From contig CAJTWC010000003.1 of assembly GCA_910580185.1 (NCBI GenBank), positions 34,304 to 98,303 on the forward strand: 64,000 nt of DNA, given 5' to 3'. A program made the position numbers and the translations under genes. This stretch comes from an uncultured Bacilli bacterium (GTDB taxonomy: Bacteria > Bacillota_I > Bacilli_A > RF39 > UBA660). The first letter of the stretch is position 1; every line of letters begins with the position of its first letter. Below are positions 23,835 through 60,588 of this stretch, piece after piece. The notes below the pieces were generated by a model. It worked only from the letters and a program-made list of their open reading frames with translations, was not told the origin of the DNA and searched no databases.

Positions 23835-23924
23835 ATGAGGTTTAGATTTGAAATAAAATTTAGTCCAAAATTAATTATCATATTATTACTTGTAATAGCC
23901 CTAGTGTTAATTACTAGTATATAA
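23835..23924 (+). CDS. 29-aa hydrophobic peptide (MRFRFEIKFSPKLIIILLLVIALVLITSI), candidate type I toxin-like small membrane protein
   Basis: Strong SD AAGGTGG 9 nt upstream; single predicted TM helix; stop codon abuts a 16-bp bidirectional terminator hairpin; missing from the ORF track because of its size. Confidence 0.4.
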   Translation: MRFRFEIKFSPKLIIILLLVIALVLITSI

Positions 23925-24005
23925 GAAAAACAGAGTTAGTGACAAACTAGCTCTGTTTTTCAATAAACAAAACATATGGAAAACAACTAGTAATGTTGCT
24001 TCCTT
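23918..24005 (-). ncRNA. candidate convergent antisense small RNA overlapping the terminator of the 29-aa ORF
   Basis: Minus-strand promoter with -35 TTGAAT (plus 24036-24041), 17-nt spacer and -10 TATAAT (plus 24013-24018); transcription runs into the bidirectional terminator, giving an RNA of about 85 nt. Confidence 0.3.
23925..23961. terminator. bidirectional intrinsic terminator (16-bp stem, GACAA loop)
   Basis: GAAAAACAGAGTTAGT / ACTAGCTCTGTTTTTC pair perfectly apart from one G-U pair. Confidence 0.6.
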
Positions 24006-24098
24006 CATTTATATTATATATTAAATTTTGTAGTTATTCAATTATTTTATCTTTCTTTTTTTTAAATAATGATATATAATTAAATCATAGGAGGATAT

Positions 24099-24653
24099 AT
24101 GAAAATAGCATTAATAATTATTTTAGTAATCGTAGTATTAATAGTAATGTATTTAATATCTACGTATAATTCACTTGTTGGATTAAGAAATAAGGTAAAG
24201 GATCAATGGTCACAAATCGATGTTGTGTTAAAAAACAGAAACGATTTAATACCAAATCTAGTTGAAACTGTTAAAGGTTATGCAAAACATGAAAAAGAAA
24301 CTTTAGATGCTGTTATAAACGCAAGAAGTAAAGCTGCTAACGCAACTTCTGTTGAAGAAGAAATGAAAGCTGCTGGTGAAGTTACACAAGCTTTAGGTCG
24401 TTTATTTGCAATCGCTGAAAGTTATCCAGATTTAAAAGCTAATACTAACTTTTTAGATTTACAAAGTAAATTAAATGAAGTTGAAGAAAAAATACGTTTT
24501 GCAAGACAGTTTTATAATGATACAGTTTTAAATTATAAAAACAAACTTGAAATGTTTCCATCTAATATAGTAGCTAATATGTTTGGCTTTAAACCAGAAG
24601 CTTTCTTTGAAGCTACTGAAGAAGAAAGAAAAAACGTACAAGTTAAATTTTAG
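24099..24653 (+). CDS. lemA: LemA family protein
   Basis: N-terminal TM, then the YNSLVGLRNKVKDQWSQIDVVLKNRNDLIPNLV signature typical of LemA; 184 aa. Confidence 0.85.
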   Translation: MKIALIIILVIVVLIVMYLISTYNSLVGLRNKVKDQWSQIDVVLKNRNDLIPNLVETVKGYAKHEKETLDAVINARSKAANATSVEEEMKAAGEVTQALGRLFAIAESYPDLKANTNFLDLQSKLNEVEEKIRFARQFYNDTVLNYKNKLEMFPSNIVANMFGFKPEAFFEATEEERKNVQVKF

Positions 24654-24680
24654 TCTACTAACAAAGTAGACTTTTTTCTT
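24652..24680 (+). terminator. intrinsic terminator or attenuator between lemA and the DUF2207 gene
   Basis: AGTCTACT-AACAA-AGTAGACT followed by TTTTTTC. Confidence 0.5.
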
Positions 24681-24702
24681 TTAAAAGGAGGAGAAAAAGT
24701 GT

Positions 24703-26427
24703 ATGAAAAAAATATTTAAATTCATATCAATTGCTATACTATTATTTATTTTTCCGCTTGTTGTAAAAGCAAATAGTATATCTTCCATTGATATGGATAT
24801 ATACGTAGATGAAAGTGGCACTGCACACGTAACAGAAACTTGGAGTGCTAATTTAAATCAAGGTACCGAAGGATATAAACCATATTATAATCTTGGTAAC
24901 GCAAAAATATCAAATTTTAAAGTTAGTGAAAATGGTAAAACATATACATATAATGACTATTGGAACACTAATGATAGTTTTGATAAAAAAGCATATAAAA
25001 ATGGTATTAATTATATTTCGGATGGTTTAGAGCTGTGCTGGGGTATAAGTAGTTACGGATACCATAATTATGTTTTAACTTATGATATAGAAGGATTTGT
25101 AGCAACCCTTGATGATGCTGATATGATTTATTGGACGCTTATTCCATACGAATTGTCATCGAAACCAGATGACGTACATATTAAAATACACACTGATAAT
25201 TATTTAAGTGATAGTGTGCCAGTTTGGGGATATGGAAATTATGGTGGTACTGCATACGTATATGATGGTTATATAGAAATGAATTCTGAAGGCACATTAG
25301 AATCAAATGAGTACATGACCATATTAGTTAAATTTGATAAAGGAACGTTTAATACATCTAATACATTAAGTGAAGATTTTGATTACTATCATGATATGGC
25401 AGATGTTGGTGCAACAAAATATAAGGATGATAAAAAATCAAGCTTTTTAGATATTATAATGTCCATCTTTGCAATCGTTTTTCATTTTTTTATTTGGGTT
25501 GTTGTTGTAATAACTATCTCTAAAAGTATGAAGAATGCTGCTAATAGAGTTGGCACTAAGACCTTTAATTTTGGTCCACAAGGGAAAGTATTACCAAAAG
25601 ATATACCTAACTATCGTGATATACCATTTAATAAAGACATATTTAGAACTTTTTGGATAGCAGAAGGCTATAAATTAAATAAAAACAAAACAGATTTTTT
25701 AGGAGCAATTTTACTTAAATGGTTAAAAGAACAAAAGATATCTATAAAAAAAGTAGAAGCTGGTTTTATAAAGAAAAAGGAAGAAACCGCAATTGATTTA
25801 ACCAAGGAAATAACCTTTGATGAAGTATTAGAACAAGAATTATTTGATATGATGAAAGAAGCAAGTCGTGATGGTATCCTTGAATCTAAAGAATTTGAAA
25901 ACTGGTGTGATGATAATTATAGTGAAATTTTAACCTGGTTTGATAAGGTAATAGATAAGGAAACTGATGAATTAATTCTTGAAGGAAAAATAACCGTAAC
26001 AGAAAAAACTAACCTTAAAGTATTTAAGTCCAAGGAATACGTAGTTGATCCATCGATGAAAGAGGAAGCTATTAAATTAAAAGGATTAAAGAACTTTTTA
26101 GAAGAGTTCTCAAGAATAGATGATAAAGAAGCGATTGAAGTAAATATGTGGGAATATTATTTAATATATGCACAAATACTTGGAATTGCAGATAAGGTTG
26201 CTAAACAATTTAAGAAATTATATCCTGAAATTATCGATAATCCAGAACTTGGTTATACATATACTGACATTATGTTTATACATATGGTAAGTCATAGTGG
26301 AATGCGCACAGCAACTACATCACAACAAAGAGCACAAAGCTATTCATCTGGCGGCGGCGGATTCTCTTCTGGAGGAGGTGGAGGCGGCTCCTTCGGTGGT
26401 GGTGGAGGCGGAGGAGGCTTTAGATAG
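24703..26427 (+). CDS. DUF2207-domain membrane protein (LemA partner) with a Gly-rich C-terminal tail
   Basis: Signal peptide, central TM, and C-terminal SSGGGGFSSGGGGGGSFGGGGGGGGFR typical of DUF2207; encoded directly downstream of lemA. Confidence 0.7.
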   Translation: MKKIFKFISIAILLFIFPLVVKANSISSIDMDIYVDESGTAHVTETWSANLNQGTEGYKPYYNLGNAKISNFKVSENGKTYTYNDYWNTNDSFDKKAYKNGINYISDGLELCWGISSYGYHNYVLTYDIEGFVATLDDADMIYWTLIPYELSSKPDDVHIKIHTDNYLSDSVPVWGYGNYGGTAYVYDGYIEMNSEGTLESNEYMTILVKFDKGTFNTSNTLSEDFDYYHDMADVGATKYKDDKKSSFLDIIMSIFAIVFHFFIWVVVVITISKSMKNAANRVGTKTFNFGPQGKVLPKDIPNYRDIPFNKDIFRTFWIAEGYKLNKNKTDFLGAILLKWLKEQKISIKKVEAGFIKKKEETAIDLTKEITFDEVLEQELFDMMKEASRDGILESKEFENWCDDNYSEILTWFDKVIDKETDELILEGKITVTEKTNLKVFKSKEYVVDPSMKEEAIKLKGLKNFLEEFSRIDDKEAIEVNMWEYYLIYAQILGIADKVAKQFKKLYPEIIDNPELGYTYTDIMFIHMVSHSGMRTATTSQQRAQSYSSGGGGFSSGGGGGGSFGGGGGGGGFR

Positions 26428-26507
26428 CCTTCTTTTTTCTTATAATCAATTATAAATAAAGTAAAGTATTAAAAAATAGAAAAAGTATAGTATAATTAAT
26501 TATAGAG

Positions 26508-26753
26508 GTGATATTTTTGGCTAATAAATCTAATAATTATAGTGATAGTAACTTAAACGAGTATGATATTAGAAATTTTTTAAAAAAAGATGAAGAAAGA
26601 AAAGCTTTTCAAAGGGATAAAGTAAAAATAGAAGTTGGAGATCTTCCTAATATTCTTGATGGATCAAGTTTTTATGATCCGTATAAAAAGGGAGTTTCTT
26701 TTAAAAGCCCTGATGGAAAATCAAAAGTTTTTTCTAAAGACTGTATTATATAA
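26508..26753 (+). CDS. small hypothetical protein (TTG start)
   Basis: AGAGGTG RBS 6 nt before the TTG; 81 aa. Confidence 0.3.
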   Translation: MIFLANKSNNYSDSNLNEYDIRNFLKKDEERKAFQRDKVKIEVGDLPNILDGSSFYDPYKKGVSFKSPDGKSKVFSKDCII

Positions 26754-26759
26754 TAGTAT

Positions 26760-26788
26760 TTGACTAATCTTTAAAAATATAATAAAAT
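26760..26788 (+). promoter_or_regulatory. sigma70-like promoter (-35 TTGACT, 17-nt spacer, -10 TAAAAT) driving the T-box leader
   Basis: Read directly from the sequence. Confidence 0.45.
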
Positions 26789-26793
26789 ATATT

Positions 26794-26935
26794 TAGTTTT
26801 TAGTAAGAAGTGACAACTTACAAATAAAATAAAAACTAGACAATTAAATAATATAAACAAAGAGCACTTATGTGAAATAGGGTGGCACCGTGGACAGATT
26901 TGTTCATCCCTATAACTTTAAGGCTCTTTTTATTT
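26794..26935 (+). promoter_or_regulatory. T-box-like leader RNA upstream of the GATase-hisS-ORF-aspS operon
   Basis: AAUAGGGUGGCACCGUGG at 26876-26893 matches the T-box consensus AAUUAGGGUGGNACCGCGG. A candidate antiterminator can be drawn as AGGG / 7-nt bulge UGGCACC / 7-bp helix GUGGACA:UGUUCAU / CCCU. A short stem-loop at 26794-26838 has a GAC (Asp) codon in its apical loop. A U-run lies at 26925-26935. A canonical terminator helix could not be drawn. Confidence 0.45.
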
Positions 26936-26949
26936 AATAAGGAGTGCTT

Positions 26950-27570
26950 ATGAAAAAAGTAGCAATATTACTTAGACTTAATAGAAAAGAAGAAAACGCT
27001 AAAGAAACGTTTTGGATAAAAGAAGACGTGATTAATGTTTTCAAAAATTATGATGTTAACTATTTTCTAATTCCTATGAATACCGCTTCGAATGATGATT
27101 ATGATAACATCATTGAAAAGATAAAGATGGCAGACGGTGTTATTATTCCAGGAGGAGTACGTGGTGGTTCTAAAATGGAACTAGATATTGTTAAATATTT
27201 ATATGATAATGATATCCCAACCATCGGTGTTTGCTTCGGACATCAAAGTATGGGCGTAGTATTTGGTGGTAAAAAAGAAAACGTAGAGGGCCACCATAAA
27301 TTAGGAGAAAAATATGTCCATTATGTTAATATAAATAAGGATTCTTTATTATATAAGATAATAGGTAAAGAAAGATTACTAGTTAATAGTAAACATAAAA
27401 AAATAGTTGTTGGTACAAGCTTGGATATTTCAGCATATAATGATGAAAATATGCCAGAAGCATTTGAAGATAAAACTAAAAAATGTTTTATAGGAGTACA
27501 ATGGCATCCAGAAAGTATAATGGATCTTGATAACAAAAAAATATTTGATTACTTTATAAGTAAGTTATAG
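26950..27570 (+). CDS. class I glutamine amidotransferase-like protein (peptidase C26 / gamma-glutamyl hydrolase family)
   Basis: GVCFGHQ nucleophile motif and QWHPE; AAGGAG RBS 7 nt upstream of the ATG at 26950. Confidence 0.65.
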   Translation: MKKVAILLRLNRKEENAKETFWIKEDVINVFKNYDVNYFLIPMNTASNDDYDNIIEKIKMADGVIIPGGVRGGSKMELDIVKYLYDNDIPTIGVCFGHQSMGVVFGGKKENVEGHHKLGEKYVHYVNINKDSLLYKIIGKERLLVNSKHKKIVVGTSLDISAYNDENMPEAFEDKTKKCFIGVQWHPESIMDLDNKKIFDYFISKL

Positions 27571-27583
27571 AAAGGAAGATATT

Positions 27584-28939
27584 ATGATAACTAAACCAAA
27601 AGGAACAAAAGATATTTATGGGGTAGAAGCTAAAAGATGGCAGTACGTATCTAAGGTAATAGACGAGGTAATGGAAAAGTATAATTATAACTTTATACGT
27701 GTTCCAGTATTTGAAGCAAGCGAATTATTTCATAGAGGAGTTGGAGAAACAACTGATATAGTAACAAAAGAAACTTATGATTTTACTGATCGTGGTGGTC
27801 GATGCATGACTCTTAGACCAGAAGGTACTGCGGGAGTTGCTAGATGTTTCATTGAAAATAAAATGTATGGTGATAATAACCAGCCAATAAAACTTTATTA
27901 TAATTGTCCGATGTATCGATATGAAAGACCACAAGCAGGAAGATATAGAGAACTTACTCAATTTGGTTATGAACTTATTGGAAGTGATGATCCACTAGCA
28001 GATGCTGAAGTAATAAGCCTTGCCGTTAACATATATAAAATACTTGGTTTAAAGGGAATTAAAGTTAATATTAACTCATTAGGGGATGCTGAATCTAGAA
28101 ATAACTATAGAGAAGCTTTAATTAATCACTTTAAACCACATATAGATGAGTTATGCTCTGATTGCAAAGAAAGATTAGAGAAAAACCCTTTAAGAATACT
28201 TGATTGTAAAGTTGATGCTGATAAAGAAGTTATGAAGACGGCTCCTAAAACAATAGATTACCTAAATAAAGAATCTAAAGAAAGATTTGAGAAAGTAAAA
28301 GAGTATTTAGAAGTTATGGGCGTTGAATACATAGTTGATCCATCAGTAGTTAGGGGTCTTGATTATTATAATCATACCGTGTTTGAAGTAGAAGCTGATA
28401 TTGAAGGATTTGGTGCTCAAAACGTTATTGGTGGTGGAGGCCGTTATAATGGCATGATAGAGCAGTTAGGCGGGCCTAGTACTCCAGCGATTGGTTTTGC
28501 AGCAGGCTTTGATAGACTAATGCTTGCTTTAGAGTATGAAAAGGTAAATATACCGGTAAATGAAAGCGTAGATTTGTTCTTACTATACGTAAATGATGAT
28601 GAGAAAAAATACGCTGCATACTTAACTAATGAACTTAGAATGAATGGTTTTGTTGTAGAAACCGATTATTTAAATAGAAGCTTAAAAGCAGGATTTAAAC
28701 AAGCCGATAGGTTAAATAGTAAATTCACTATCGTACTTAATAGTGAAATGTTAGAAAATAACGAAGTCAAAATTAAAAATAATAAAACTAAAGAAGAAGA
28801 AACTATATCAATAGATGCACTAATTTATTATTTAGATGAAAATATAATAGAAGATGAAAATTGTGGATGCTCGCATGATGATCATGAATGTGGTTGTGGT
28901 GATTCATGCAAGTGTCACAACAAGGATAATAATGAATAA
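27584..28939 (+). CDS. hisS: histidine--tRNA ligase with an unusual Cys/His-rich C-terminal tail
   Basis: Typical HisS N-terminus MITKPKGTKDIYG and class II motifs; 451 aa; C-terminus ENCGCSHDDHECGCGDSCKCH. Confidence 0.95.
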   Translation: MITKPKGTKDIYGVEAKRWQYVSKVIDEVMEKYNYNFIRVPVFEASELFHRGVGETTDIVTKETYDFTDRGGRCMTLRPEGTAGVARCFIENKMYGDNNQPIKLYYNCPMYRYERPQAGRYRELTQFGYELIGSDDPLADAEVISLAVNIYKILGLKGIKVNINSLGDAESRNNYREALINHFKPHIDELCSDCKERLEKNPLRILDCKVDADKEVMKTAPKTIDYLNKESKERFEKVKEYLEVMGVEYIVDPSVVRGLDYYNHTVFEVEADIEGFGAQNVIGGGGRYNGMIEQLGGPSTPAIGFAAGFDRLMLALEYEKVNIPVNESVDLFLLYVNDDEKKYAAYLTNELRMNGFVVETDYLNRSLKAGFKQADRLNSKFTIVLNSEMLENNEVKIKNNKTKEEETISIDALIYYLDENIIEDENCGCSHDDHECGCGDSCKCHNKDNNE

Positions 28940-29495
28940 TTTCGAAATAAAAGAGCTTATAAGACAAAAATTTAATGCTATATCAGATCCAGTAGTTGCT
29001 AAAAACTATGATGGTTTTATTGATCAAGATGGATACTTTTATGCATCTGCCCTTAAGTATCGACATGAACCAAGTCATGCTGATTTAGCCCTTGATATAT
29101 TAACTTACTATGATATCATAGTAAATGATGAAAAAGGTGGAATCTTTAGCAAGGTAAAAGAATTCATGTTTTCATATGTAAAAGATGATTATGAAAGAAA
29201 AAAATTGGCGCATTTAAAAGCTCACGTTAATCCAACTAAAGAATTAATTGAAAAATTAAAATTTATGTATTATAGTCATTCTCAAAAAGCCAACAGAAGG
29301 CCTATTATAGAAATAAATGATATGGGAATAGTAAGTAGAGAACAAAAAAATATGTTGATAAGTATTTTACAATTAAATAATGAGTTATCTTTTTTACCAG
29401 ATGATTTAATAGGCGCTAAAAAAGAAGAAATGCACCAAAGATATGTTGATAACTATATTATAAAAAATATGAATAAGGAGAATATAAACAAATGA
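28932..29495 (+). CDS. hypothetical protein inserted between hisS and aspS
   Basis: The ATG overlaps the hisS stop (ATGAATAA); 187 aa; no known motifs. Confidence 0.45.
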   Translation: MNNFEIKELIRQKFNAISDPVVAKNYDGFIDQDGYFYASALKYRHEPSHADLALDILTYYDIIVNDEKGGIFSKVKEFMFSYVKDDYERKKLAHLKAHVNPTKELIEKLKFMYYSHSQKANRRPIIEINDMGIVSREQKNMLISILQLNNELSFLPDDLIGAKKEEMHQRYVDNYIIKNMNKENINK

Positions 29496-30793
29496 TTAAT
29501 TATAAAGAATGTATAAATAAAAAAATTACAATATCTGGCTTTGCTGAAAAGGTTAGAAATCTTCAATGGGTACAATTTATAGTACTTAGAAATGAAGGTC
29601 AAAGAATTCAAGTCACTATTGAAAAGTCTGATGAAAAAAATAAAGAAATGGTTGAAATTGTAGATAAGTTAACCAACGAGTCAACCATTACGGTAACTGG
29701 AACAATAAAGGAAAATGAAAAAGTTAAGATGGGCGGTATGGAGCTAATCCCAGAATCTATTACCGTAACTAGCTTATCAGCGCCTGAACTTCCTATTAAC
29801 ATAACTAATAAGGATGCAGCAGCAATTGATACTAGAATGGATAATAGATTTATTGACCTTAGAAACGATGTTAATTTTCATATATTTAAAATACAAACTG
29901 AATTCGTAAGAGCGATGAGACAGTATTTATATCAAGAAGATTTCACTGAAATTCATACTCCAAAATTAATTGGAGCAGCATCAGAATCAGGTAGTGAAGT
30001 ATTCGAAGTTGATTACTTTGGAGATAAAGCATATCTTGCTCAATCACCACAATTTTATAAACAAATGGCAATAGCAGCAGGATATGAAAGGGTATTTGAA
30101 GTAGCGCCAGCATTTAGAGCAGAAAATTCAAACACTAATAGACACGCAACAGAATTCACTTCATTTGACTTAGAATTTGCTAACATAAGATCATATGAGG
30201 ATGTTATGGCCGTCGAAGAAGACCTTTTAGTAGAAGGCCTTACTGCAGTTAAAGAAAAATATGGAGATTTAATAAAAGAATTATATGGCGTTGACGTAGT
30301 AGTTCCAACTAGGCCATTCCCTAGAATAGACTTACAAGATTTATATAAAGAATTAAGTGAAAGATATGGTTATAAAGTACCCGATCATGATATTGGTGAT
30401 ATGAATGCCGAAGCAGAAAAATTAACTAGTCGTTATGCGATGGACGTATATGGTCATGAATTTATCTTTGTAACTGGTTTTAGTAAAGCAAAAAGACCAT
30501 TCTACCACATGAGAAAAGATGGTATTCCTCAAGGTTATGACCTTATCTGGAAAGGTACTGAAATAACAACTGGGGCACAAAGAGAACATAGATACGATGT
30601 GTTAGAAGCTCAAGCAAACGAAAAAGGTTTAGGAGAGGATATTAAATTTTATAAAGACTTCTTTAAATATGGATGTCCACCACACGGAGGCTTTGCGCTT
30701 GGAATTGATAGAATGACAATGTTACTTTTAGGATTACCATCATTAAAAGAAACAATGTTCTTATTTAGAGGGCCAAACAGAATTACACCTTAA
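29492..30793 (+). CDS. aspS: aspartate--tRNA ligase, archaeal/type-2 (short, about 433 aa)
   Basis: Class IIb motifs (FRAENSNTNRHATEF; GGFALGIDRMTMLLLGL); C-terminal ...FRGPNRITP ending typical of AspRS2; much shorter than the roughly 590-aa bacterial AspS. Confidence 0.8.
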   Translation: MINYKECINKKITISGFAEKVRNLQWVQFIVLRNEGQRIQVTIEKSDEKNKEMVEIVDKLTNESTITVTGTIKENEKVKMGGMELIPESITVTSLSAPELPINITNKDAAAIDTRMDNRFIDLRNDVNFHIFKIQTEFVRAMRQYLYQEDFTEIHTPKLIGAASESGSEVFEVDYFGDKAYLAQSPQFYKQMAIAAGYERVFEVAPAFRAENSNTNRHATEFTSFDLEFANIRSYEDVMAVEEDLLVEGLTAVKEKYGDLIKELYGVDVVVPTRPFPRIDLQDLYKELSERYGYKVPDHDIGDMNAEAEKLTSRYAMDVYGHEFIFVTGFSKAKRPFYHMRKDGIPQGYDLIWKGTEITTGAQREHRYDVLEAQANEKGLGEDIKFYKDFFKYGCPPHGGFALGIDRMTMLLLGLPSLKETMFLFRGPNRITP

Positions 30794-30817
30794 TGCTGGT
30801 AAAAAATAGGAGGGTTT

Positions 30818-31384
30818 ATGGAAAATAAAAATAATAATTATGTAAAAGAAGCATTTGATAAAATTGAACATAGAAAAATTTTACTTAATAATAGAGCAAT
30901 TGAAGCAGATAATTATATAAATAAATTAAATAATTTCATTTTGTATAATAATATGGAAATAAGCTCAATAGTATGTGAAGAAATGCAGTATTACGTAGGA
31001 AATTTAATATGTAATATTTTATTAATTGAAAATGCTATATTAGCTAATATAGTTACAGCTAATGGCTCAGATCCTAATATAATATTTATGTCTTTAAGTA
31101 TTTGTGAGTCTATAAGATTAGCAGATAATAATAATTTTTCTAGAAAATTCATACCTTCTCTTAAGGATTTGTTAAGTAATATATTTGAATTAAAAAAAAT
31201 GAATCGTATTGCACGTAGGCAAATTAATAATAAAGATATTGAGTTAGAAAAATATAGAAAAGAATGTGAATTAAAGGCCCACGAAATAATAAACAACATA
31301 TTTTCAGAAGAAAATATGTATTACGACGGAAACGTCATAAATGAAGAAATAGATAAAGCTAAATCAATAGGTAATAATAATTAA
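30818..31384 (+). CDS. hypothetical protein
   Basis: GGAGGG RBS; 188 aa. Confidence 0.45.
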   Translation: MENKNNNYVKEAFDKIEHRKILLNNRAIEADNYINKLNNFILYNNMEISSIVCEEMQYYVGNLICNILLIENAILANIVTANGSDPNIIFMSLSICESIRLADNNNFSRKFIPSLKDLLSNIFELKKMNRIARRQINNKDIELEKYRKECELKAHEIINNIFSEENMYYDGNVINEEIDKAKSIGNNN

Positions 31385-31525
31385 AATTACAAGTAAGTAT
31401 GAAATATCAAAAAATAATATAGATTAGTATATTATTTTTTTATTTACAAGATATAACCATTTATTATTGTTTTTTAATTTAAAATAATATATAATTATCT
31501 TAGAATGAATAGGAGTGGGATTATG

Positions 31526-32224: not shown

Positions 32225-32230
32225 ATAAAT

Positions 32231-32409
32231 GCCTAAAGGTATCGGGCGCTAGCACATTTAACCCGCTAAGATTTAATAGGGAATCAGAATCAATAGTGGT
32301 GTTCATGCTTAAATTTATTTAAGAAGTCTAAAACTATTGTGGGATGCCCACCTGCGAGAATTGCAGGTTTATCTTGTTAGCAAACGACCCTTTGGGTTCT
32401 TTTTTTTTA
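32231..32409 (+). ncRNA. candidate stand-alone structured small RNA of about 180 nt, identity undetermined
   Basis: The locally GC-richer segment lies between a strong promoter and an intrinsic terminator (ACGACCC-UUU-GGGUUCU followed by U9). It contains adjacent hairpins GUGGG-AUGC-CCCAC and CCUGC-GAGAAUU-GCAGG. There is no long ORF, and the downstream gene has its own TTGACG/TAACAT promoter. Confidence 0.35.
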
Positions 32410-51740: not shown

Positions 51741-52508
51741 TTAAACATCGCGAGACTGTATTTCAGCTATCTTAGCTAATACTTCCGATGCATTTGTTTG
51801 ATTGATTTCTGTGTATCCTAACTCATGTAATGCTTGTATCTTAGCTGAATTTATTTCTTGAGTTCTAGAAAGTTTTTCTTCGTTCTTGTGTTCTATTTCT
51901 GCTACAAACTTCTTATGTTGTTCGGCAAGTTTTGTTTTTGATGCGCCACCATTACGGTATAAAGTCATTGCTGAATGCATAATACTTTCAAAAATAAATT
52001 GTTCTTCCTCATTAAATGTATATTCTTCTGGATCAACAAAGCCTAATAGTTTATCAATATATCCCATCATATATTTTAACTCTTTAACATTTTCTAATCC
52101 TTGGACAAAATTAAGTAAATATTTATATGTTAAATATGCGTCATTAGAATTTTCTATAAAACGTTCTTTTATTAAGAAAATAATGTCATTTAATAATTCT
52201 TGTTCTCTTGGCTTTAATTCTTTAAATTCTATTGATTCTGAATGAGTTACACTTATATTAGATGCGTCACCATTTAATACCATATCAACCTTATTTATAA
52301 ATTCAGCATCTACTTTTATATTATCTATATCAGTAGCCTCTTTAATATCCAATAAATTAAATAATTTCATTTTTTTATCTTTTGGCCATCTAGAAATATC
52401 ATTCATTTCTAAATAATTATAAATCATTTGGCGAGATACACCTAAATATTTTGCAAGTTTAACTTTAGAAATCCCTACCTCTTGTAAAATTTCGTTAAGT
52501 TTATCCAT
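51741..52508 (-). CDS. putative DNA-binding protein with N-terminal HTH
   Basis: N-terminus VGISKVKLAKYLGVSRQMIYNYL is a helix-turn-helix; GAGGAG RBS. Confidence 0.45.
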   Translation of the reverse strand: MDKLNEILQEVGISKVKLAKYLGVSRQMIYNYLEMNDISRWPKDKKMKLFNLLDIKEATDIDNIKVDAEFINKVDMVLNGDASNISVTHSESIEFKELKPREQELLNDIIFLIKERFIENSNDAYLTYKYLLNFVQGLENVKELKYMMGYIDKLLGFVDPEEYTFNEEEQFIFESIMHSAMTLYRNGGASKTKLAEQHKKFVAEIEHKNEEKLSRTQEINSAKIQALHELGYTEINQTNASEVLAKIAEIQSRDV

Positions 52509-53250: not shown

Positions 53251-53345
53251 TTTAATCTCCCTAATAAACTATATTAATAATATTTAATATTATGACTTTT
53301 ATTTTAATGATTTTTATATTATAATTATCCTAAGAGGTGAATAAA

Positions 53346-53489: not shown

Positions 53490-53529
53490 AATACTGTCGT
53501 ATTCTTTTTTTTATTAAATATAATTTAGT

Positions 53530-53931
53530 ATGACAAACGAAGAAAAAATAAATAATCAAAAAATAAAATTTTTAGATCTTCAAATGGTAGCAACTATAGG
53601 ATTTATTTTAACTCTTATAATATCTTTTTTACTATCCTATGATAAAAAATTATCTTTAGAAAAAAAAGATAGATTATTCACAGAAGAAAACGCTCAAAAT
53701 TTAGCTCTTTTTCAAACTATCTTAGTATTTGTAATAGCCATATGCTTTTTATATATAAATTATAAACAATATAATATCGCTAAAGAAAATCATGGTAATG
53801 ATGAAAATGACTTTCTTCTTCAAATAGAAACTTCAATATTCGCTATAATATCAGCTATCATTGGATTATATATTGTATTTAAAAATTACCGAAATAAAAA
53901 TCTTAATATATCAGAAACGGAACCGTTTTAA
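53530..53931 (+). CDS. hypothetical membrane protein
   Basis: 3 predicted TM helices. Confidence 0.35.
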   Translation: MTNEEKINNQKIKFLDLQMVATIGFILTLIISFLLSYDKKLSLEKKDRLFTEENAQNLALFQTILVFVIAICFLYINYKQYNIAKENHGNDENDFLLQIETSIFAIISAIIGLYIVFKNYRNKNLNISETEPF

Positions 53932-54485
53932 TTATCATATTTATAATTTAAACTTTTTTCAGCATACTCTAAAGCTTTATCTCTGTCAAAAAAATATTCA
54001 TCAGGAATTATAAAACAGCTAGTTTTACGATAACCATTTGATATTTCAAAAGAAAGTGCAATTCCAATTATTTGTTCATCATTAAGTTTTTTTAAATGCT
54101 TCAATAGTTCTTTATCATAATGTTTAATAATATCAATTTTTAAATTTTCTTCAATGTACACTCTTTTTACAGATGCTTTTAAAGTTTCTAAATAATTATT
54201 ATCTACGTTTACTTTTCTTTTAATTAAATAATAAGTATATGCTTCACAAAAACCATCTATACATAAAAGAAAATTAGTATGACTATTAGGATATGGTAAA
54301 GTTAGATTAATATTATATATTTTATTATTTTTAAAATTTACCATACATATATTCTGATTATTACTTAAATTTCTAACAAACTTAGCTTTATCTTCCATAT
54401 AACTTATAAACTTTTTATCGAAAAAACGTAACTTTTCTAAAAAGGTTATAACCTTTAAATAATAATTTTTAGTTTTTTTATCCAT
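53928..54485 (-). CDS. hypothetical protein
   Basis: AGGTGA RBS upstream of the ATG at 54485; the ORF track begins at a TTG at 54491. Confidence 0.4.
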   Translation of the reverse strand: MDKKTKNYYLKVITFLEKLRFFDKKFISYMEDKAKFVRNLSNNQNICMVNFKNNKIYNINLTLPYPNSHTNFLLCIDGFCEAYTYYLIKRKVNVDNNYLETLKASVKRVYIEENLKIDIIKHYDKELLKHLKKLNDEQIIGIALSFEISNGYRKTSCFIIPDEYFFDRDKALEYAEKSLNYKYDN

Positions 54486-54545
54486 ATGCAAATCACCTGG
54501 TAAAATATAATATCACAAAAAAAGAAAAAAAGGAACTAAACGTTC

Positions 54546-55535
54546 CTAATTTTCCGCTTCTTTAAGCATTGTTGTAATTAATATCCCATATCCTCTTTTA
54601 GGATTATTAACTACTACGTTCGTTACTGCACCTATTATATTATCTCCTTGAATTATAGGAGAACCACTCATTCCTTGAACAATTCCACCAGTTTTTTCAA
54701 CTAAATTATCATCTGTTACTTCAAATAATATATTTTTATTACTATTACCATCATTAGTTACCTTAATTATGTTTATTTCGTATTCTGTTTTTATATCATC
54801 TTTTAATACCGTTATAATTTTAGCTTTGCCTAGTTTTATATCTTCATAATCAACTACTTTATATAAACTATTTTTATTTATTTCTTTCGTATAGCTACCA
54901 AATATTCCTGATGTTGTATTTTCTTTTATATCACCAAATACTTCATTTGAATTTACATTAGCATTTTTAGCACCAGGTTCTCCTCTGGTAGATTTATCAA
55001 TAGACGTTACGTTTGAATCATAAATTTTACCGTCTTTTACATTTAACATAACACCGCTTGTTCCTTCTATTACTTCGTGCCCTAATGCACCATAAAGTTT
55101 AGTTTTTGGATCGATAAATGTTAAAGTTCCTATTCCTGAGACCATGTCTTTAACATAAAGCCCAGTTTTTAATGTATTATCTTCATTTATTAAATTTAAA
55201 GTCGTATCGCTATTTTTTTTATTTCTCTTATACGTAATTTTTAAACTTCTTTGATTACTATTTTTTATCGAGGTAATAAAATCATCTATTGTTTTAACAT
55301 TATTATCATCTACTTTAACTATAGTATCTCCTGCTTTTAAATTAGCTTCTACTCCTGGAGACATATCACCTACTTTATAAAAACCTGCTATTATAACTCC
55401 GTTATTATTAATTTGAAGCCCTATGTTTTCTCCGCCTGCTATTATATAATCAGAATAAGCAAATAAAGTTTGTGGCATAATAAATGTAGCAACTATAAAA
55501 ATTGCTATAAAACTTTTAATTTTTTTAAAAAACAT
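54546..55535 (-). CDS. SpoIVB-like S55 serine peptidase with PDZ domain
   Basis: Signal peptide, PDZ-like region (GDTIVKVDDNNV), S55-type motifs SGIGTLTF and GMSGSPI; AAGGAG RBS. Confidence 0.55.
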   Translation of the reverse strand: MFFKKIKSFIAIFIVATFIMPQTLFAYSDYIIAGGENIGLQINNNGVIIAGFYKVGDMSPGVEANLKAGDTIVKVDDNNVKTIDDFITSIKNSNQRSLKITYKRNKKNSDTTLNLINEDNTLKTGLYVKDMVSGIGTLTFIDPKTKLYGALGHEVIEGTSGVMLNVKDGKIYDSNVTSIDKSTRGEPGAKNANVNSNEVFGDIKENTTSGIFGSYTKEINKNSLYKVVDYEDIKLGKAKIITVLKDDIKTEYEINIIKVTNDGNSNKNILFEVTDDNLVEKTGGIVQGMSGSPIIQGDNIIGAVTNVVVNNPKRGYGILITTMLKEAEN

Positions 55536-55629
55536 TTTTTATGCTCCTTTTGTAATTCGAACTACATTATTATTATGTTTCAAATATTTTTAATAATTAG
55601 TGATAAAAAATGGTAATAAAAAAAGGAAA

Positions 55630-56532
55630 TTAATCCCATAAATTTTTAGGATATTTTCCTTCTTCTATCATTTTATTAATAGCATTAACTAAGTCTTCTT
55701 TATCTTCTTTATAAGTAACACCATACCATTTTTCATCAGTGTCCAATACTTTAACATTTATTTTACCTTCGTCAATTCTTTTAAACACACTAGTTGGTAT
55801 TAAGAATTCACATTTGTCTAAATCATTTTTATGATTTTCAAAAAATTCTATCATTTCTTCTTCTAAATAATTAAATATAGAAGGTTTAAATCCAAAGAAG
55901 TTCATTGATACTAAATCGTTTTCATTTATTTCAAAAATATTGTTTTCATCTTCTAAAGATGTAGCCATTATCTTATCACCATTTTTTTCTATACTAGATT
56001 CAATTAGACTAGTTAAGTTTCCGTTGCTATCTTTTTCGCAAACTCCTCTTTTAACAGATCCGTTTTCACTCATGGTGTTTATTACGTTATATCCTACCAT
56101 AGCATATTCATTACTATCTGTTACTTTATCGAAGTATTCCTTTGTTTTTACATATGGATCAAGTCCATAAAAATCATCTGCATTTATTATAGAAAATGGT
56201 TCATTTACATACTTTTTAGCAGATAAAATCGCATGTGATGTTCCCCAAGGTTTTACTCTTCCAACAGGTATTTCAACACCTTCAGGTACATCTTCTATTT
56301 TCTGGAATGCATATTCAACTTTTATTTTAGATTCTATTCTTTTTCCAATAGTATCTCTAAATAAATCGTAGTTTTCTTCTTTTATTATGAAAACAACTTT
56401 ATCATATCCAGCTCTTATTGCATCATATACTGAATAATCTAAAATAAATTCTCCATTTGGTCCTACTGGTTCTACTTGTTTTAATCCGCCGAATCTAGAA
56501 CCCATTCCGGCAGCCATAATTACTAATGTCAT
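55630..56532 (-). CDS. sugar-phosphate nucleotidyltransferase (NTP_transferase family)
   Basis: N-terminal MAAGMGSRFGGLKQ nucleotide-binding loop; AGGAGG RBS. Confidence 0.6.
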   Translation of the reverse strand: MTLVIMAAGMGSRFGGLKQVEPVGPNGEFILDYSVYDAIRAGYDKVVFIIKEENYDLFRDTIGKRIESKIKVEYAFQKIEDVPEGVEIPVGRVKPWGTSHAILSAKKYVNEPFSIINADDFYGLDPYVKTKEYFDKVTDSNEYAMVGYNVINTMSENGSVKRGVCEKDSNGNLTSLIESSIEKNGDKIMATSLEDENNIFEINENDLVSMNFFGFKPSIFNYLEEEMIEFFENHKNDLDKCEFLIPTSVFKRIDEGKINVKVLDTDEKWYGVTYKEDKEDLVNAINKMIEEGKYPKNLWD

Positions 56533-56533
56533 A

Positions 56534-56938
56534 TTATTTTCCTCCTTTATTTACAATATCTATAACATATTTTTTTAAGTCACTTGTAATATCAATTTGA
56601 TAGCTATCATCATTTTTTAAGTTATGAAGATACGTAACTCCACATTCTGTGTTATCAAAAGTAATCTTATAATTACCAAACTTAACTATATACATACCAA
56701 TTCCAATACAATTTGTAATATGTTTAGTTTCCTTTAAATCCTCTTTTTTTAAATATTTTTTAATTATATTCTGATTTTTTTTTGTTAACTTAATTTTTTT
56801 AGTTCTATCAGTTTGATAATCAAGCCTTTTATAGACTTCAACATTATTAGAACTATTACTCTTATTTAACATTAAAATACTTATTATAATTACTAATATT
56901 AACAAAATCATAATAATTATTTTTTTAATATTTCTCAT
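56534..56938 (-). CDS. hypothetical protein with N-terminal TM
   Basis: 134-aa ORF. Confidence 0.4.
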   Translation of the reverse strand: MRNIKKIIIMILLILVIIISILMLNKSNSSNNVEVYKRLDYQTDRTKKIKLTKKNQNIIKKYLKKEDLKETKHITNCIGIGMYIVKFGNYKITFDNTECGVTYLHNLKNDDSYQIDITSDLKKYVIDIVNKGGK

Positions 56939-56943
56939 TATGT

Positions 56944-57165
56944 TTACTCCGCAGTAAAGTCTTCTTCACTACCATTTTCCGTTAATATTTTATTAACATT
57001 TTCTTCTGCGGTTTTAAGCTTTAATGAGCATTCCTTAGCAAGTTTCATAGCAGTAGTATATTTTTCTATTGCATCATCTAAATCTACATCGCCTCGTTCT
57101 AACTCACTTACCATTTTTTCAAGTTCATTTAACTTATCTTCAAATTTTGTTTCTTCTTTTTCCAT
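56944..57165 (-). CDS. xseB: exodeoxyribonuclease VII small subunit
   Basis: FEDKLNELEKMVSELERGDVDLDDAIEKY is typical XseB; GGAGGA RBS upstream of the ATG at 57165. Confidence 0.85.
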   Translation of the reverse strand: MEKEETKFEDKLNELEKMVSELERGDVDLDDAIEKYTTAMKLAKECSLKLKTAEENVNKILTENGSEEDFTAE

Positions 57166-57173
57166 GTTTCCTC

Positions 57174-57458
57174 CTACATACATTTATATATTCCTAAAAT
57201 GCAAAGTATAATTGATACTATGACAAGTCCCAAATGATAATATTTATCATCTTTATCTTTAACTTTAAACATCCCAAATATATTATATATAATTGATATT
57301 GTCATAGATAAAACTATTATCGTAAATAATAATTTACCAAATAAATTATTATAACTAATTCTAGCGTTAAATAAAGCCATTACAACTTCTATTAAAAGAA
57401 GTATAAAAGTAAGCGTTGTACCTATAATCGCACTATTTGCTTTTTTATTATTTTTCAT
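57174..57458 (-). CDS. small membrane protein between xseA and xseB
   Basis: GGAGG RBS 6 nt upstream of the ATG at 57458; 3 TM helices. Confidence 0.4.
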   Translation of the reverse strand: MKNNKKANSAIIGTTLTFILLLIEVVMALFNARISYNNLFGKLLFTIIVLSMTISIIYNIFGMFKVKDKDDKYYHLGLVIVSIILCILGIYKCM

Positions 57459-58719
57459 GTAAAACCTCCATAACCTTAGCATTTATTTTACCATCTTTTA
57501 ACATAATATTAATATTATCTTCTATTTTTAAATCATTAACGCTTGATATGCAAATATCATCTTTTTTTGTTACAGAGTATCCTCTTTTTAAAGCGTTTAG
57601 TGGATTTAATATTTCTAACTTTTCAATTAAATGGTTAGTTTTCTTTAATTTGTTTTCATATAGAATATTTGGATTTTTAAATATAATACTATTTTCTATT
57701 ATTTCTAATTTAGATTTACTAGTATATATAATAGTATTCATACACGTATTTAACTTATCTATTATGTTGTCTAACTTCTGTTCTTTTATTTCGTATAAAC
57801 TTAAAGGATTTTTTAAAACATAACTTTCCGATAGTTTTTTTAGTCTTAATTTATTATTTTCTAAAATTCTTTTAACACTATTTGTAAGCCTTGCCTCATT
57901 ATTACTTATTTCTAATAACAAATCAGTTAAAATAGGCACCGCACGCTCTGCTGCTCCCGTTGGAGTTTCAGCTCTTACATCCGCTACAAAATCGCATATC
58001 GTAAAATCTATTTGATGGCCAACGCCACTTATTATAGGTGTTTTACAAGAAAAAACTTTACGAGCAACTACTTCTTCGTTAAAAGGCCATAAATCCTCGA
58101 TAGAACCTCCTCCACGTCCAAGTATAATAACGTCTAAATCGTAATTATCAGCAATATCTAACTTTTTTACAATGTCATCTTTAGCAAGCTCTCCTTGTAC
58201 TAAACAAGGAAATAAAATTGTTTTACAAATTGGAAACCTTCTTTTAATGGTAGATAAAATATCTTTTACCGCCGCTCCAGTAGATGCTGTAATGATACCT
58301 ACCCTCATAGGAATTTTTGGAATTTCCTTTTTATATTTAGGGTCAAATAAACCTTCTTCACCTAGTTTTTTCTTTAACTGTTCAAACGCAATATGCAAAT
58401 TACCAACGCCATCTTCTAACATTTCACTTACGTATATTTGATAATTACCAGTTGATTCAAAAACACTTATTTTACCCTTTACCAATATCTTCATACCATC
58501 TTCTGGTATAAATTTAAGTTTAGAGGCGTTAAAACTAAACATAATGGCATTTATTCTTGAGTTTTCATCCTTAATAGTAAAATAGAAATGACCACGAGTA
58601 TGTGCTTTAAAATTAGATATTTCTCCTTTTAAGTACACTTCTTGCAGGTTTTTATCATTATCAATTTTATACTTAATGTATCTAGTAAGTGCGGTTACAC
58701 TCAAATATTTATCATCCAT
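57448..58719 (-). CDS. xseA: exodeoxyribonuclease VII large subunit
   Basis: OB-fold N-terminus LSVTALTRYIKYKID...VYLKGEISNF; AGGTGA RBS upstream of the ATG at 58719 (the ORF track begins at a GTG at 58728). Confidence 0.9.
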   Translation of the reverse strand: MDDKYLSVTALTRYIKYKIDNDKNLQEVYLKGEISNFKAHTRGHFYFTIKDENSRINAIMFSFNASKLKFIPEDGMKILVKGKISVFESTGNYQIYVSEMLEDGVGNLHIAFEQLKKKLGEEGLFDPKYKKEIPKIPMRVGIITASTGAAVKDILSTIKRRFPICKTILFPCLVQGELAKDDIVKKLDIADNYDLDVIILGRGGGSIEDLWPFNEEVVARKVFSCKTPIISGVGHQIDFTICDFVADVRAETPTGAAERAVPILTDLLLEISNNEARLTNSVKRILENNKLRLKKLSESYVLKNPLSLYEIKEQKLDNIIDKLNTCMNTIIYTSKSKLEIIENSIIFKNPNILYENKLKKTNHLIEKLEILNPLNALKRGYSVTKKDDICISSVNDLKIEDNINIMLKDGKINAKVMEVLHEK

Positions 58720-58801
58720 ATCTTTCACCTATTTTTCTTACAATTACATTGTATCATTTTTTAGAATTAGGTGCAATTTATATCACAAAAAAAGTATCTC
58801 A

Positions 58802-59506
58802 TTAGATACTTTTTAATGTTTTTTCAATCTCTTTTATTTTCTTATTTGAGATTTTTTTGTTTTTTCTTCTTAATTCTTTAGAAATCCCATTCACAGCGTT
58901 TCTTATAATAATTTCTTCATCCGTATCTTTATAACAATTAAGTGTAAATGTCAATGCTTTTGAAAAATCTTCTATTCCTCTATTTAAAATATGATTGGCA
59001 AAATCTCTTGACAACCTTTTACAATATAAGTATTCCCACATGTTATCAGGATTTGCGTAAAAGGTAGCATACATTCCTGGATTATAAACAGGTCTAATCA
59101 TTTTTTCACGTTTAGGCAAATTAGAATATTCGCTATACATTTCATCTAATTCGTCATATAAATCACAAATATATTCTTTTCTTAAATTTTCTTTAATCAT
59201 ATGAAATTCTAACATTATCTCATTGTTATTCTCAAACTCATCTATTTCCATTCCATGAAAAAATCTTTCTTTAATATATTCTTCATATTCATTAGCAAAT
59301 TTTGAAACAGCATATACCGTTGGTACTTTCATTTCTTCTTTTGGAACTGACATAATTGCTAATGCTTCTAAATTTAACGCCGCTTCAAAACTTGCTTTGG
59401 TTTTAAAAGCAGAAGATATTATATCTTCACACTTTTGGTCAACCCTTTTTCTATATCCAACACCGTCATTTTTATCGGATTCTTCTCTCTTAAAATAATT
59501 AAACAC
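58802..59506 (-). CDS. hypothetical protein (GTG start)
   Basis: AGGAGG RBS 8 nt upstream of the GTG. Confidence 0.4.
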   Translation of the reverse strand: MFNYFKREESDKNDGVGYRKRVDQKCEDIISSAFKTKASFEAALNLEALAIMSVPKEEMKVPTVYAVSKFANEYEEYIKERFFHGMEIDEFENNNEIMLEFHMIKENLRKEYICDLYDELDEMYSEYSNLPKREKMIRPVYNPGMYATFYANPDNMWEYLYCKRLSRDFANHILNRGIEDFSKALTFTLNCYKDTDEEIIIRNAVNGISKELRRKNKKISNKKIKEIEKTLKSI

Positions 59507-59600
59507 CTTAAAACCCTCCTTTTAAGTAATATTATTATAAATGGAATTATAATAATTTGCAATATTTTTGTTTATGATATATCATTATCTTGGTGATTTT

Positions 59601-60377
59601 ATGAATGAAGAAAACTTAATTACTTACTATAATAAATTTAACGAAGATAAAAGATTAACTCATCGTCATGGTATTGTAGAATATGTAACCGCTATGAAAT
59701 ATATTCATGATTTATTAAAAAAATACAAAAATCCTAAAATATTAGACGTGGGAGCTGGTACTGGTAGGTATTCGGTTACATTAGCAAATGAAGGTTATGA
59801 TGTAACTGCTATCGAGCTTGTAAAACATAATTTAATGACGTTAAAATCAAAAAACAGCACTGTTAAAGCACATTTAGGTAATGCTACTAACCTTTCCTTA
59901 TTTAAAGATAATTCGTTTGATGTGGTGCTTTTATTTGGGCCACTATATCATTTAATTAATAAAGAAGATAAATTAAAAGCTATAATAGAAGCTAAAAGGG
60001 TTTTGAAAAAAGATGGTGTTATATTAATTAGTTATTATATGAATGAATATGCAATAATTACCCATGGATTCAAAGATAATAATATATTGGATGCAATTAA
60101 AAACAATGAAATTGATGAAAACTTTCATGTTACGCCTAAAGAAACCGACCTTTATAGCATGGTTAGATTAGAAGATATTAATGAATTAAAAGATTTATCA
60201 GAATTAAATAGAATTAAAATATTATCCCAAGATGGCCCTTCTGATTATATTAGGCGGGTAATTAATAAAATGGATGAAAAAACTTTTAATACGTATATAA
60301 AATACCATCTGTCAACGTGTGAAAGGCCTGAACTTTTAGGCGCATCAAGTCATGTTTTAGATATATTAAAAAAATAA
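59601..60377 (+). CDS. class I SAM-dependent methyltransferase
   Basis: Motif I ILDVGAGTGRYSVTLA; the start could be further upstream (the ORF-track start is 59568; 59574 is another option). Confidence 0.7.
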   Translation: MNEENLITYYNKFNEDKRLTHRHGIVEYVTAMKYIHDLLKKYKNPKILDVGAGTGRYSVTLANEGYDVTAIELVKHNLMTLKSKNSTVKAHLGNATNLSLFKDNSFDVVLLFGPLYHLINKEDKLKAIIEAKRVLKKDGVILISYYMNEYAIITHGFKDNNILDAIKNNEIDENFHVTPKETDLYSMVRLEDINELKDLSELNRIKILSQDGPSDYIRRVINKMDEKTFNTYIKYHLSTCERPELLGASSHVLDILKK

Positions 60378-60380
60378 TAT

Positions 60381-60408
60381 TTACATAAATATAATATTTT
60401 TGTATAAT
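60381..60408 (+). promoter_or_regulatory. sigma70-like promoter (-35 TTACAT, 16-nt spacer, TG-TATAAT) driving a short plus-strand RNA
   Basis: Read directly. Confidence 0.45.
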
Positions 60409-60415
60409 TTAATTA

Positions 60416-60503
60416 GTGAGAGCACCTAACTTAAGGTTAGTAGCTTTCCTTAAATTTGTTTAGGGAAAAAGCGTAACTCCCCCCTGGGTATAGTTACGCT
60501 TTT
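60416..60503 (+). ncRNA. candidate ~88-nt small RNA convergent with the 26-aa peptide gene
   Basis: Starts at the left inverted repeat, contains the hairpin CUAAC-UUAAG-GUUAG, and ends at the bidirectional terminator at 60466-60504. Confidence 0.3.
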
Positions 60504-60504
60504 T
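60466..60504. terminator. bidirectional intrinsic terminator
   Basis: AAAAAGCGTAACT-loop-AGTTACGCTTTTT. Confidence 0.55.
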
Positions 60505-60507
60505 CTT

Positions 60508-60588
60508 TTATATTTTAAAAATTAGTATTGCTAATAATAAAATTAAAAGGATAATTATTACTCTTTGAAACTTAGTTTCACTTTTCAT
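60508..60588 (-). CDS. 26-aa hydrophobic peptide (MKSETKFQRVIIILLILLLAILIFKI), candidate type I toxin-like small membrane protein
   Basis: AGGTGGTG SD 6 nt upstream; single TM helix; stop codon abuts the bidirectional terminator; sequence-similar to the 29-aa peptide at 23835. Confidence 0.4.
   Translation of the reverse strand: MKSETKFQRVIIILLILLLAILIFKI

Follow-up and report, generated by a model that had tools for sequence, protein, structure and literature searches.

Fst/RNAII and SprA1/SprA1as are the Gram-positive type I toxin-antitoxin families whose antisense RNA is located 3' of the toxin gene, does not overlap the toxin open reading frame (ORF) and interacts with the toxin mRNA outside the region of overlap (PMC8594479). 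The par/Fst loci are defined by convergent promoters, a bidirectional terminator, the direct repeats DRa and DRb over the initiation region, a 5' stem-loop that sequesters the Shine-Dalgarno (SD) sequence, and a 5' upstream helix, and the Fst toxin itself by a transmembrane helix with a PxxxG-type motif, a tryptophan and a charged C-terminus (PMC7472228). Here, we describe a unit of comparable layout that occurs twice, as locus A and locus B, in a 64-kb stretch of contig CAJTWC010000003.1 (hereafter the window) from an uncultured gut member of the Bacilli, with DNA of ~26% G+C and Candidatus Aphodocola as its closest named relatives. The initial annotation had singled out the interval between 23835 and 60588, which are the start codons of two small ORFs. 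Each of these ORFs lies within a unit of ~330 nucleotides (nt), and exactly two copies of this unit are present in the window. As read from its sequence, the unit is composed, in order, of an upstream box, a weak -10 element, a 5' hairpin, an SD/anti-SD hairpin, the ORF, a bidirectional terminator, and a predicted convergent promoter with its 84-94-nt RNA. We consider that it probably, though by no means certainly, represents a new and narrowly distributed type I toxin-antitoxin-like family with a par/Fst-SprA1 layout, in which the peptide would be toxic by analogy with the known systems.

The unit shares with par/Fst (RNA I/RNA II of Enterococcus faecalis pAD1) and with SprA1/SprA1as of Staphylococcus aureus the convergent promoters, the shared bidirectional terminator with complementary stem-loops, a 3'-side antisense RNA of similar size that stays clear of the ORF, the SD-sequestering hairpin and the small single-helix peptide. 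The helix found at the extreme 5' end of the par/Fst toxin mRNA is probably present as well, and the second complementarity outside the overlap, which varies between paralogues in par/Fst and SprA1, is also seen here. By contrast, the peptide departs from Fst and Ldr: it lacks the P/D/S/TxxxG motif, a tryptophan following the helix and a charged tail at the C-terminus, and it matches no Fst model. In addition, it is the mRNA's 5' hairpin that the second complementarity involves, where in par/Fst it covers the SD and start codon, and the repeat consists of look-alike 5' hairpins on both RNAs instead of DRa/DRb. By eye, no YUNR U-turn was evident in the terminator loops, for which no formal motif search was made; this motif of the toxin-RNA terminator loop is not found in all par/Fst homologues (PMC7472228).

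Two further groups are close enough to be compared. The Bacillus subtilis systems TxpA/RatA, BsrG/SR4, BsrE/SR5 and YonT/SR6 likewise combine a Gram-positive host with a 3'-side antisense RNA whose overlap provides the main complementarity, and the proposed outcome, a duplex followed by RNase III-dependent decay, is alike (PMC6563280, PMC8594479). They differ in that their antisense RNAs also overlap the ORF, with a longer overlap (PMC8594479), whereas the overlap described here is restricted to the 39-45-nt terminator; the SR6 and toxin models find no sequence match in the unit (21 bits for SR6, against a gathering score of 55). The Clostridioides difficile pairs CD2517.1/RCd8, CD2907.1/RCd9 and CD0956.2/RCd10 resemble the unit in their convergent overlapping genes, their previously unannotated toxins without homology to other families, and their low-GC Gram-positive gut host (PMC6563280). 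However, these toxins are 34-59 amino acids long, with a hydrophobic N-terminus and a lysine-rich C-terminus, and lie in prophages or adjacent to CRISPR arrays (PMC6563280), whereas our peptides have 26-29 residues and the opposite charge layout, in no evident prophage context.

Relationship between the two loci

The initial annotation had proposed that the two peptides are homologous through a shared IIILL-containing core. The homology stands, but the peptides are not what establishes it. Aligned with each other, peptides A and B reach a BLOSUM62 local score of 45, with p=0.0017 against full shuffles but p=0.089 against shuffles made within the polar N-terminus and within the hydrophobic helix; the IIILL similarity thus nearly vanishes under the shuffling control that the annotation itself had suggested, once composition and layout are matched. 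Peptide A, scored against a leave-one-out hidden Markov model (HMM) of five B-type peptides, gave E=1.7 (8.1 bits) and did not stand out from random hydrophobic ORF segments in a set of 13,443. By contrast, the DNA of the two loci aligns with 76% column identity over ~330 nt, and 116 nt of non-coding sequence upstream of ORF A match the region upstream of ORF B with E=3.4e-8, the next best match in the window being at 0.005. In a leave-one-out test, a DNA profile built from B-type loci only recovered locus A as a whole unit (23713-24045) with E=3.2e-19. The conserved parts are regulatory: the box TT(T)TAGGGGAT(T/A)TTTAAAA, the -10-like element, the SD/start region and the order of the parts. 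Since it is the flanking regulatory and RNA-coding DNA that matches, rather than the peptides that resemble each other, the DNA comparison identifies loci A and B as true paralogues of one element. For short hydrophobic peptides such as these, protein similarity cannot establish homology; the architecture of leader, terminator and antisense RNA can.

The features of the two loci are as follows (window coordinates; RNA starts and promoters are predictions).

23735..23752, + strand: locus A upstream box TTTAGGGGATTTTTAAAA, an exact match in both loci and unique to them in the window, at the left end of the unit.
23766..23771, + strand: locus A likely -10 element of the peptide mRNA, ATTAAT, placed by alignment, with no sigma-A-type -35.
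23773..23802, + strand: locus A 5' hairpin of the predicted mRNA, from fold and repeat analysis, its start placed to ~3 nt.
23801..23825, + strand: locus A predicted SD-sequestering hairpin, anti-SD CCAUCUU with AAGGUGG, in minimum-energy and centroid folds.
23835..23924, + strand: locus A ORF for the 29-residue peptide MRFRFEIKFSPKLIIILLLVIALVLITSI, ATG at 23835, stop codon ending at 23924.
23923..23961, both strands: locus A bidirectional intrinsic terminator, a 16-pair stem flanked by an A-run and a U-run, providing an overlap of ~39 nt between mRNA and convergent RNA.
23923..24006, - strand: locus A predicted convergent small RNA, 84 nt, with a 5' stem-loop (24003-23979), a linker and the terminator; start placed from the promoter.
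24013..24041, - strand: locus A putative promoter of the convergent RNA, TTGAAT-17-TATAAT, 10/12 consensus positions.
60679..60696, - strand: locus B upstream box TTTAGGGGATATTTAAAA, an exact match with the locus A box.
60624..60657, - strand: locus B 5' hairpin of the predicted mRNA; the convergent RNA begins with nearly the same sequence in the same sense.
60597..60625, - strand: locus B SD-sequestering hairpin, CCGUCUUUUUAU ... AUAGAAAGGUGG, 12 pairs in predicted folds.
60508..60588, - strand: locus B ORF for the 26-residue peptide MKSETKFQRVIIILLILLLAILIFKI, ATG at 60588, stop codon ending at 60508.
60465..60509, both strands: locus B bidirectional terminator, ~45 nt common to both RNAs, with compensatory stem changes among orthologues.
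60416..60509, + strand: locus B predicted convergent small RNA, 94 nt, with a 5' stem-loop (~60418-60448), a CC..GG hairpin (~60448-60465) and the terminator.
60380..60408, + strand: locus B putative promoter of the convergent RNA, TTTACA-17-TATAAT, 11/12 consensus positions, beginning 3 nt past a methyltransferase stop codon.

Peptide, leader and convergent RNA

The claim of the initial annotation that each ORF has its own SD, a terminator directly downstream and a convergent promoter was borne out at both loci: the SD AAGGTGG precedes the ATG by 8-9 nt, a strong hairpin with a U-run directly follows the stop codon, and TTGAAT or TTTACA stands 17 nt from TATAAT on the opposite strand. Every family peptide consists of a basic N-terminus, a helix of 14-17 residues of I, L, V and A, and only 2-3 further residues (TSI, FKI or SKM), and is predicted to be a single-helix membrane peptide of 26-29 amino acids, in keeping with the small (<60 residues), hydrophobic toxins that type I systems encode on short mRNAs. 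Glycine and proline are absent from the helix in all six peptides, and tryptophan and a charged C-terminal tail from the whole family, the charges being located at the N-terminus. The coding evidence comes from six B-type sequences, namely locus B and its counterparts in five other lineages, numbered by locus below (L011, L013 and so on). The ORF has exactly 26 codons in all six, while the other frames are rich in stops; the ratio of non-synonymous to synonymous differences per site (pN/pS) is below 1 in 14 of the 15 pairs, and the variable sites number 12, 7 and 16 at codon positions 1, 2 and 3. Between L011 and L013, the ORF differs by three synonymous and zero non-synonymous changes. In L062/L063, the ORF is joined in frame to nine codons of another small gene, which points to its translation. 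Sequence comparison thus identifies the peptide ORF as a coding gene, with a constraint on the peptide that appears only moderate. Gene finders left ORF A uncalled in metagenome-assembled genomes (MAGs) of the same species; such loci are missed entirely by gene callers.

Upstream of the ORF, the SD is paired with an anti-SD in the minimum-energy fold of all five lineages, with 6-7 of the 8 bases of the SD window engaged. The anti-SD takes the forms CCAUCUU, CCGUCUU, CCGCCUU and CCACUUU; it varies at three positions, with pairing preserved each time, and 34 of the 35 core cells of the hairpin are paired across the five lineages. A 5' hairpin is predicted 1-4 nt from the likely transcript start in all loci; this start is itself placed to ~3 nt, and the fold energies are unexceptional. 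The putative mRNA promoter is recognised from the aligned -10 element alone, which reads ATTAAT (locus A), ATAAAT (locus B), TATAAT (L011), TATAAG (L064) or TATTAA (L050), each 5-8 nt before the 5' hairpin, and the predicted mRNA would be ~190 nt long.

The box TTAGGGGAT is present in each unit and matches only these two places in the window. L011 and L064 conserve it and L050 has a variant of it; it stands, as TTTAGGGGAT(T/A)TTTAAAA, at the extreme left end of each unit, ~15-35 nt before the likely -10. The flank that locus A has in common with L007, a sister lineage, stops just before it. No sigma-A-type -35 is found at the box, which may be a regulator-binding site. By-eye comparison with sigma-A -35, sigma-H, sigma-F/G, SigB and CodY sites gave no convincing fit. 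A short upstream ORF running across the box (…FRGFLKFLTNN) was also considered and discarded: it lacks an SD, overlaps the upstream terminator with its N-terminal part, and is wholly different in A and B.

On the opposite strand, the terminator stem of 16-17 pairs is located between the stop codon and the body of the small RNA at both loci, and, with an A-run on one side and a U-run on the other, it has the form of a terminator in either direction. The small RNA would thus halt at the stop codon without overlapping the ORF, the two RNAs sharing the 39-45 nt of the terminator only. The predicted convergent RNA folds with a z-score of -4.36 at locus A (0/200 shuffles fold as well) and of -5.69 at locus B. 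Among the B-type sequences, its 5' stem-loop hardly varies and includes two G-U pairs, which would be mismatches on the opposite strand, and the terminator stem shows compensatory changes among orthologues. The CC..GG hairpin is made of five different stems in five lineages, each of which beats its shuffles (p=0.003-0.041). The locus B convergent promoter is conserved in L011, L062, L063 and L064, and has a variant -35 in L013. When the window was scanned with Rfam, only 6S RNA reached its gathering score, and in permissive searches the best sub-threshold matches fell on terminator hairpins (for example SR6, with 21.4 bits against 55).

Proposed regulation and alternative explanations

We propose that one strand of the unit produces the ~190-nt mRNA for the membrane peptide, and that this primary transcript would be poorly translated because its SD is locked in a local hairpin with the upstream anti-SD. 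From the other strand, the near-consensus promoter would drive the synthesis of the 84-94-nt structured RNA, which would converge on the peptide gene and end at the same terminator. If both RNAs end there, perfect complementarity over 39-45 nt of their 3' ends is guaranteed by the sequence; that both are transcribed with these ends and pair in the cell, we infer. Pairing would begin at the complementary terminator loops and spread into a duplex, with a second contact possible between the 5' hairpin of the mRNA and both the terminator arm and the look-alike 5' hairpin of the small RNA. The duplex would lead to cleavage or decay of the mRNA, as with RNase III in known systems, and/or keep the mRNA untranslated. 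Upon loss of the small RNA, the peptide would be made and would insert into the membrane.

The candidate second contact was delimited by energy calculations. In both paralogues, the best second site on the mRNA lies in the 5' hairpin (nt 12-35) and has the 5' arm of the small-RNA terminator as its partner, at -21.7 kcal/mol for locus A (null minimum -14.6) and -17.6 kcal/mol for locus B (1% null level -14.4). At locus A, this pairing reflects a 17/19 direct repeat, of which one copy is in the leader (23785-23803) and the other in the terminator's 3' arm (23944-23962). Two other sites were tried and set aside: the par-like pairing of the 5' part of the small RNA with the SD/AUG gave nothing significant in any of five loci, and the pairing of the 3' end of the ORF with the small-RNA 5' stem-loop, seen in B and L013, was discounted as it is lost in L062 and L064.

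The 5' ends of the two RNAs were also compared with each other. The first ~32-35 nt of mRNA and small RNA are near-identical, in the same sense, within a locus (p<0.0005 for A, B, L011 and L064), whereas the cross-locus comparison is insignificant (p=0.12-0.17) and the A mRNA against the B mRNA gives p=0.03. Judged from these alignments, the two 5' ends co-evolve within each locus. Both are predicted to fold as hairpins, with each arm complementary to the other arm of the partner; a hairpin-hairpin duplex of -16 to -23 kcal/mol is no better than in shuffled controls. The shared ends may serve RNA-RNA recognition or 5'-3' closure after terminator read-through, or may reflect gene conversion or the ends of a mobile element. 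Rather speculatively, the 5' hairpins could act as an address label, by which cognate RNAs meet through hairpin strand exchange or 5'-3' closure and not through pairing at the ribosome-binding site. If so, type I systems would have a recognition logic not previously described for them, and the avoidance of cross-talk between paralogous modules of one genome would be explained. The look-alike hairpins thus offer a testable hypothesis for the partner specificity of RNAs from paralogous modules, and are the one feature of the unit that might be mechanistically new.

Several observations weigh against assigning the unit to the type I systems. None of five peptides matched a toxin family of Pfam or NCBIfam even at E<=10, a search in which HMMER filters may drop weak matches to such short peptides; PADLOC gave no match to the peptides either, and the RNAs fit no Rfam antitoxin. 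Accordingly, the comparison with Fst, Ldr, TxpA/BsrG, SprA1 and the C. difficile toxins that the initial annotation had recommended yielded no match by sequence model, and type I toxins serve as a sensible frame of comparison. The charges of the peptide are N-terminal and almost no C-terminal tail is present, whereas a charged C-terminus is what reviews ascribe to type I toxins (PMC6563280). No significant complementarity links the small RNA to the SD/AUG region, the second site reaches only a borderline level in B-type orthologues, and promoter-like hexamers are equally frequent in shuffles of this AT-rich DNA. The leader folds are unexceptional by energy alone (z=-0.8 and -1.6), so that the support for the SD hairpin is comparative. 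Finally, the L062/L063 copies have lost the SD-locking leader and gained a strong SD and nine codons, and yet the locus persists, which would be odd for a strongly toxic peptide.

This tolerance of a lost SD lock and a gained strong SD, together with the untailed peptide that matches no toxin model and the moderate constraint on its sequence, would also be expected of the main rival explanation, namely a gene for a non-toxic small membrane protein (for instance a modulator of a membrane protein) placed under a 3'-overlapping antisense RNA. We regard this as unlikely, if worth serious consideration. The module is gained and lost among very close relatives and in variable regions, its paralogues are diverged and carry locus-specific RNA ends, and SD sequestration is combined with a strong antisense promoter; such patchiness, paralogy and SD locking with antisense are hallmarks of type I loci and not of housekeeping small proteins. 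Moreover, no partner gene is conserved, the neighbours of A and B being different.

It is far less probable that the unit is a non-autonomous mobile element, similar to miniature inverted-repeat (MITE) or palindrome-associated (PATE) transposable elements, in which the end hairpins would be transposase sites and the ORF and RNAs incidental. Such an element would account for the locus-specific inverted repeat that brackets each unit with similar hairpins at both ends, for the presence or absence of the unit as a block, and for the IS605-family OrfB/TnpB genes near the methyltransferase in L062/L063. However, the homology between A and B reaches ~45-60 nt beyond the left hairpin, into the box and the -10, and A and B have different repeats, a divergence incompatible with a shared transposase. 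Conservation of the length and hydrophobicity of the ORF, with pN/pS mostly below 1, also speaks against it, as do the presence of two copies in 64 kb with none elsewhere in 475 kb of related loci, the lack of an evident target-site pattern, and the lack of a plasmid, phage or viral-contig match. Lastly, chance ORFs with chance terminators in AT-rich intergenic DNA, which the initial annotation had already thought unlikely and to which the chance-level peptide similarity and the commonness of promoter-like sites would be congenial, are effectively refuted by the leave-one-out DNA profile (E=3.2e-19), by the conservation of the ORF in six diverged sequences and by the RNA covariation.

If the type I assignment is right, the unit would constitute a new, unannotated toxin-antitoxin-like family in a lineage of uncultured gut Bacilli close to Candidatus Aphodocola, for which no such family has been described. 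The practical impact would be modest, new type I families being found regularly.

Relatives and genomic surroundings

The suggestions that the peptides belong to a small family and that further copies may exist held true for relatives of the host, in which B-type copies were recovered (L011/L012, L013, L050, L062/L063 and L064/L065); the window has only its two. L011/L012 and L013, both found through the protein P0121, and L064/L065 carry orthologues of locus B, L062/L063 a rearranged B-type copy, and L050 a more diverged member. The last was obtained by a metagenome pattern scan in which 47 loci matched and L050 was the sole true member. Its contig (ERZ842401 NODE-69473, 2172 nt) passes from ~25% to >50% G+C right after the peptide stop codon; it is probably a chimeric assembly (coverage 1.7x), uninformative on the small RNA.

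Two same-species MAGs carry locus A in identical form; the organism is represented by the MAGs GCA_949956995.1 and GCA_948686965.1. The corresponding intergenic site next to LemA is without it in the sister lineage L007, whose LemA is 90% identical, and in the more distant relatives compared, and no A-type orthologue was found among them. L064 is on the same contig as L007, so that this organism has B without A. Locus B, in turn, is missing from L061, L066/L067 and L068/L069 at the position downstream of the same methyltransferase. Presence of the module thus changes from one close relative to another, and its sites lie in variable regions.

Wider searches returned little. An exhaustive HMMER search of 1.84 billion protein representatives gave one relative, P0121, which was also the only match of a protein search with stop-to-stop translations. 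The DNA pattern of box and SD found no member in 185,579 species genomes, only two chance matches (L005 and L006), and two patterns run on viral contigs found nothing. Searches of plasmids and phages by tblastn and blastn, in which the low-complexity filter may mask weak peptide matches, gave nothing relevant, and the 475 kb of related loci held no copies beyond those known. The family is thus narrowly distributed, with five further B-type lineages near Candidatus Aphodocola.

The surroundings of both loci are variable. Where the window has locus A, between the AI-2E transporter and LemA genes, L007 has an unrelated 230-nt filler with GC-rich hairpins (L007 2271-2501), and the site looks like a hot spot of small, variable insertions. 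Beside locus B, the block 60753-63303, from NusB/HAD hydrolase to the methyltransferase, differs in gene content in every relative examined (L011, L061-L069). The 276-residue neighbour gene of locus B belongs to no Pfam family, and remnants of its 3' end adjoin the element in L011 and L064. Abi_2 and IS605 OrfB/TnpB genes stand beside the methyltransferase in L062/L063.

The rearranged copies in L062 (2772-3075) and L063, with the peptide on the minus strand, have had their promoter, 5' hairpin and SD hairpin replaced, whereas the antisense-RNA side is intact. The fused codons, MKFVIDYDI, come from another small gene with a strong AAGGAG SD. Upstream of the B-type locus, L011 (4206-4316) has a 36-residue ORF, MKFTINYDILEEIHQSKNGYRIKRYLVGDYVEMLLA, of which L064 has a decayed copy; the piece joined to the peptide in L062/L063 is the N-terminus of this ORF.

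Another ORF of 36 residues, MKFGFEYNVQDLIVTALISVIVTLILKMREDEDDHE, was noticed in L017 (OGLB01000964.1, minus strand, ~3505-3526). With its hydrophobic core and acidic tail it has an Fst-like look, and at the N-terminus it is similar to peptide A. CGAAGTATAATATAG occurs both upstream of it and in the L011 promoter, and the segment with its SD agrees with locus B. Neither Pfam nor NCBIfam gives a match, and downstream there is no terminator but an overlapping ORF. The resemblance may be coincidental, or this ORF may be a distant relative linking the family to the tailed toxins.

Two observations concern the window at large. The GC skew changes sign near 52000, being positive before ~52 kb and negative after, and the genes turn to the minus strand; this switch may reflect a replication origin or terminus, or the boundary of a large inversion or island. 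Between the two loci, at 32227-32402 (+), lies a 6S/SsrS RNA gene (RF00013), with 65 bits against a gathering score of 46.4.

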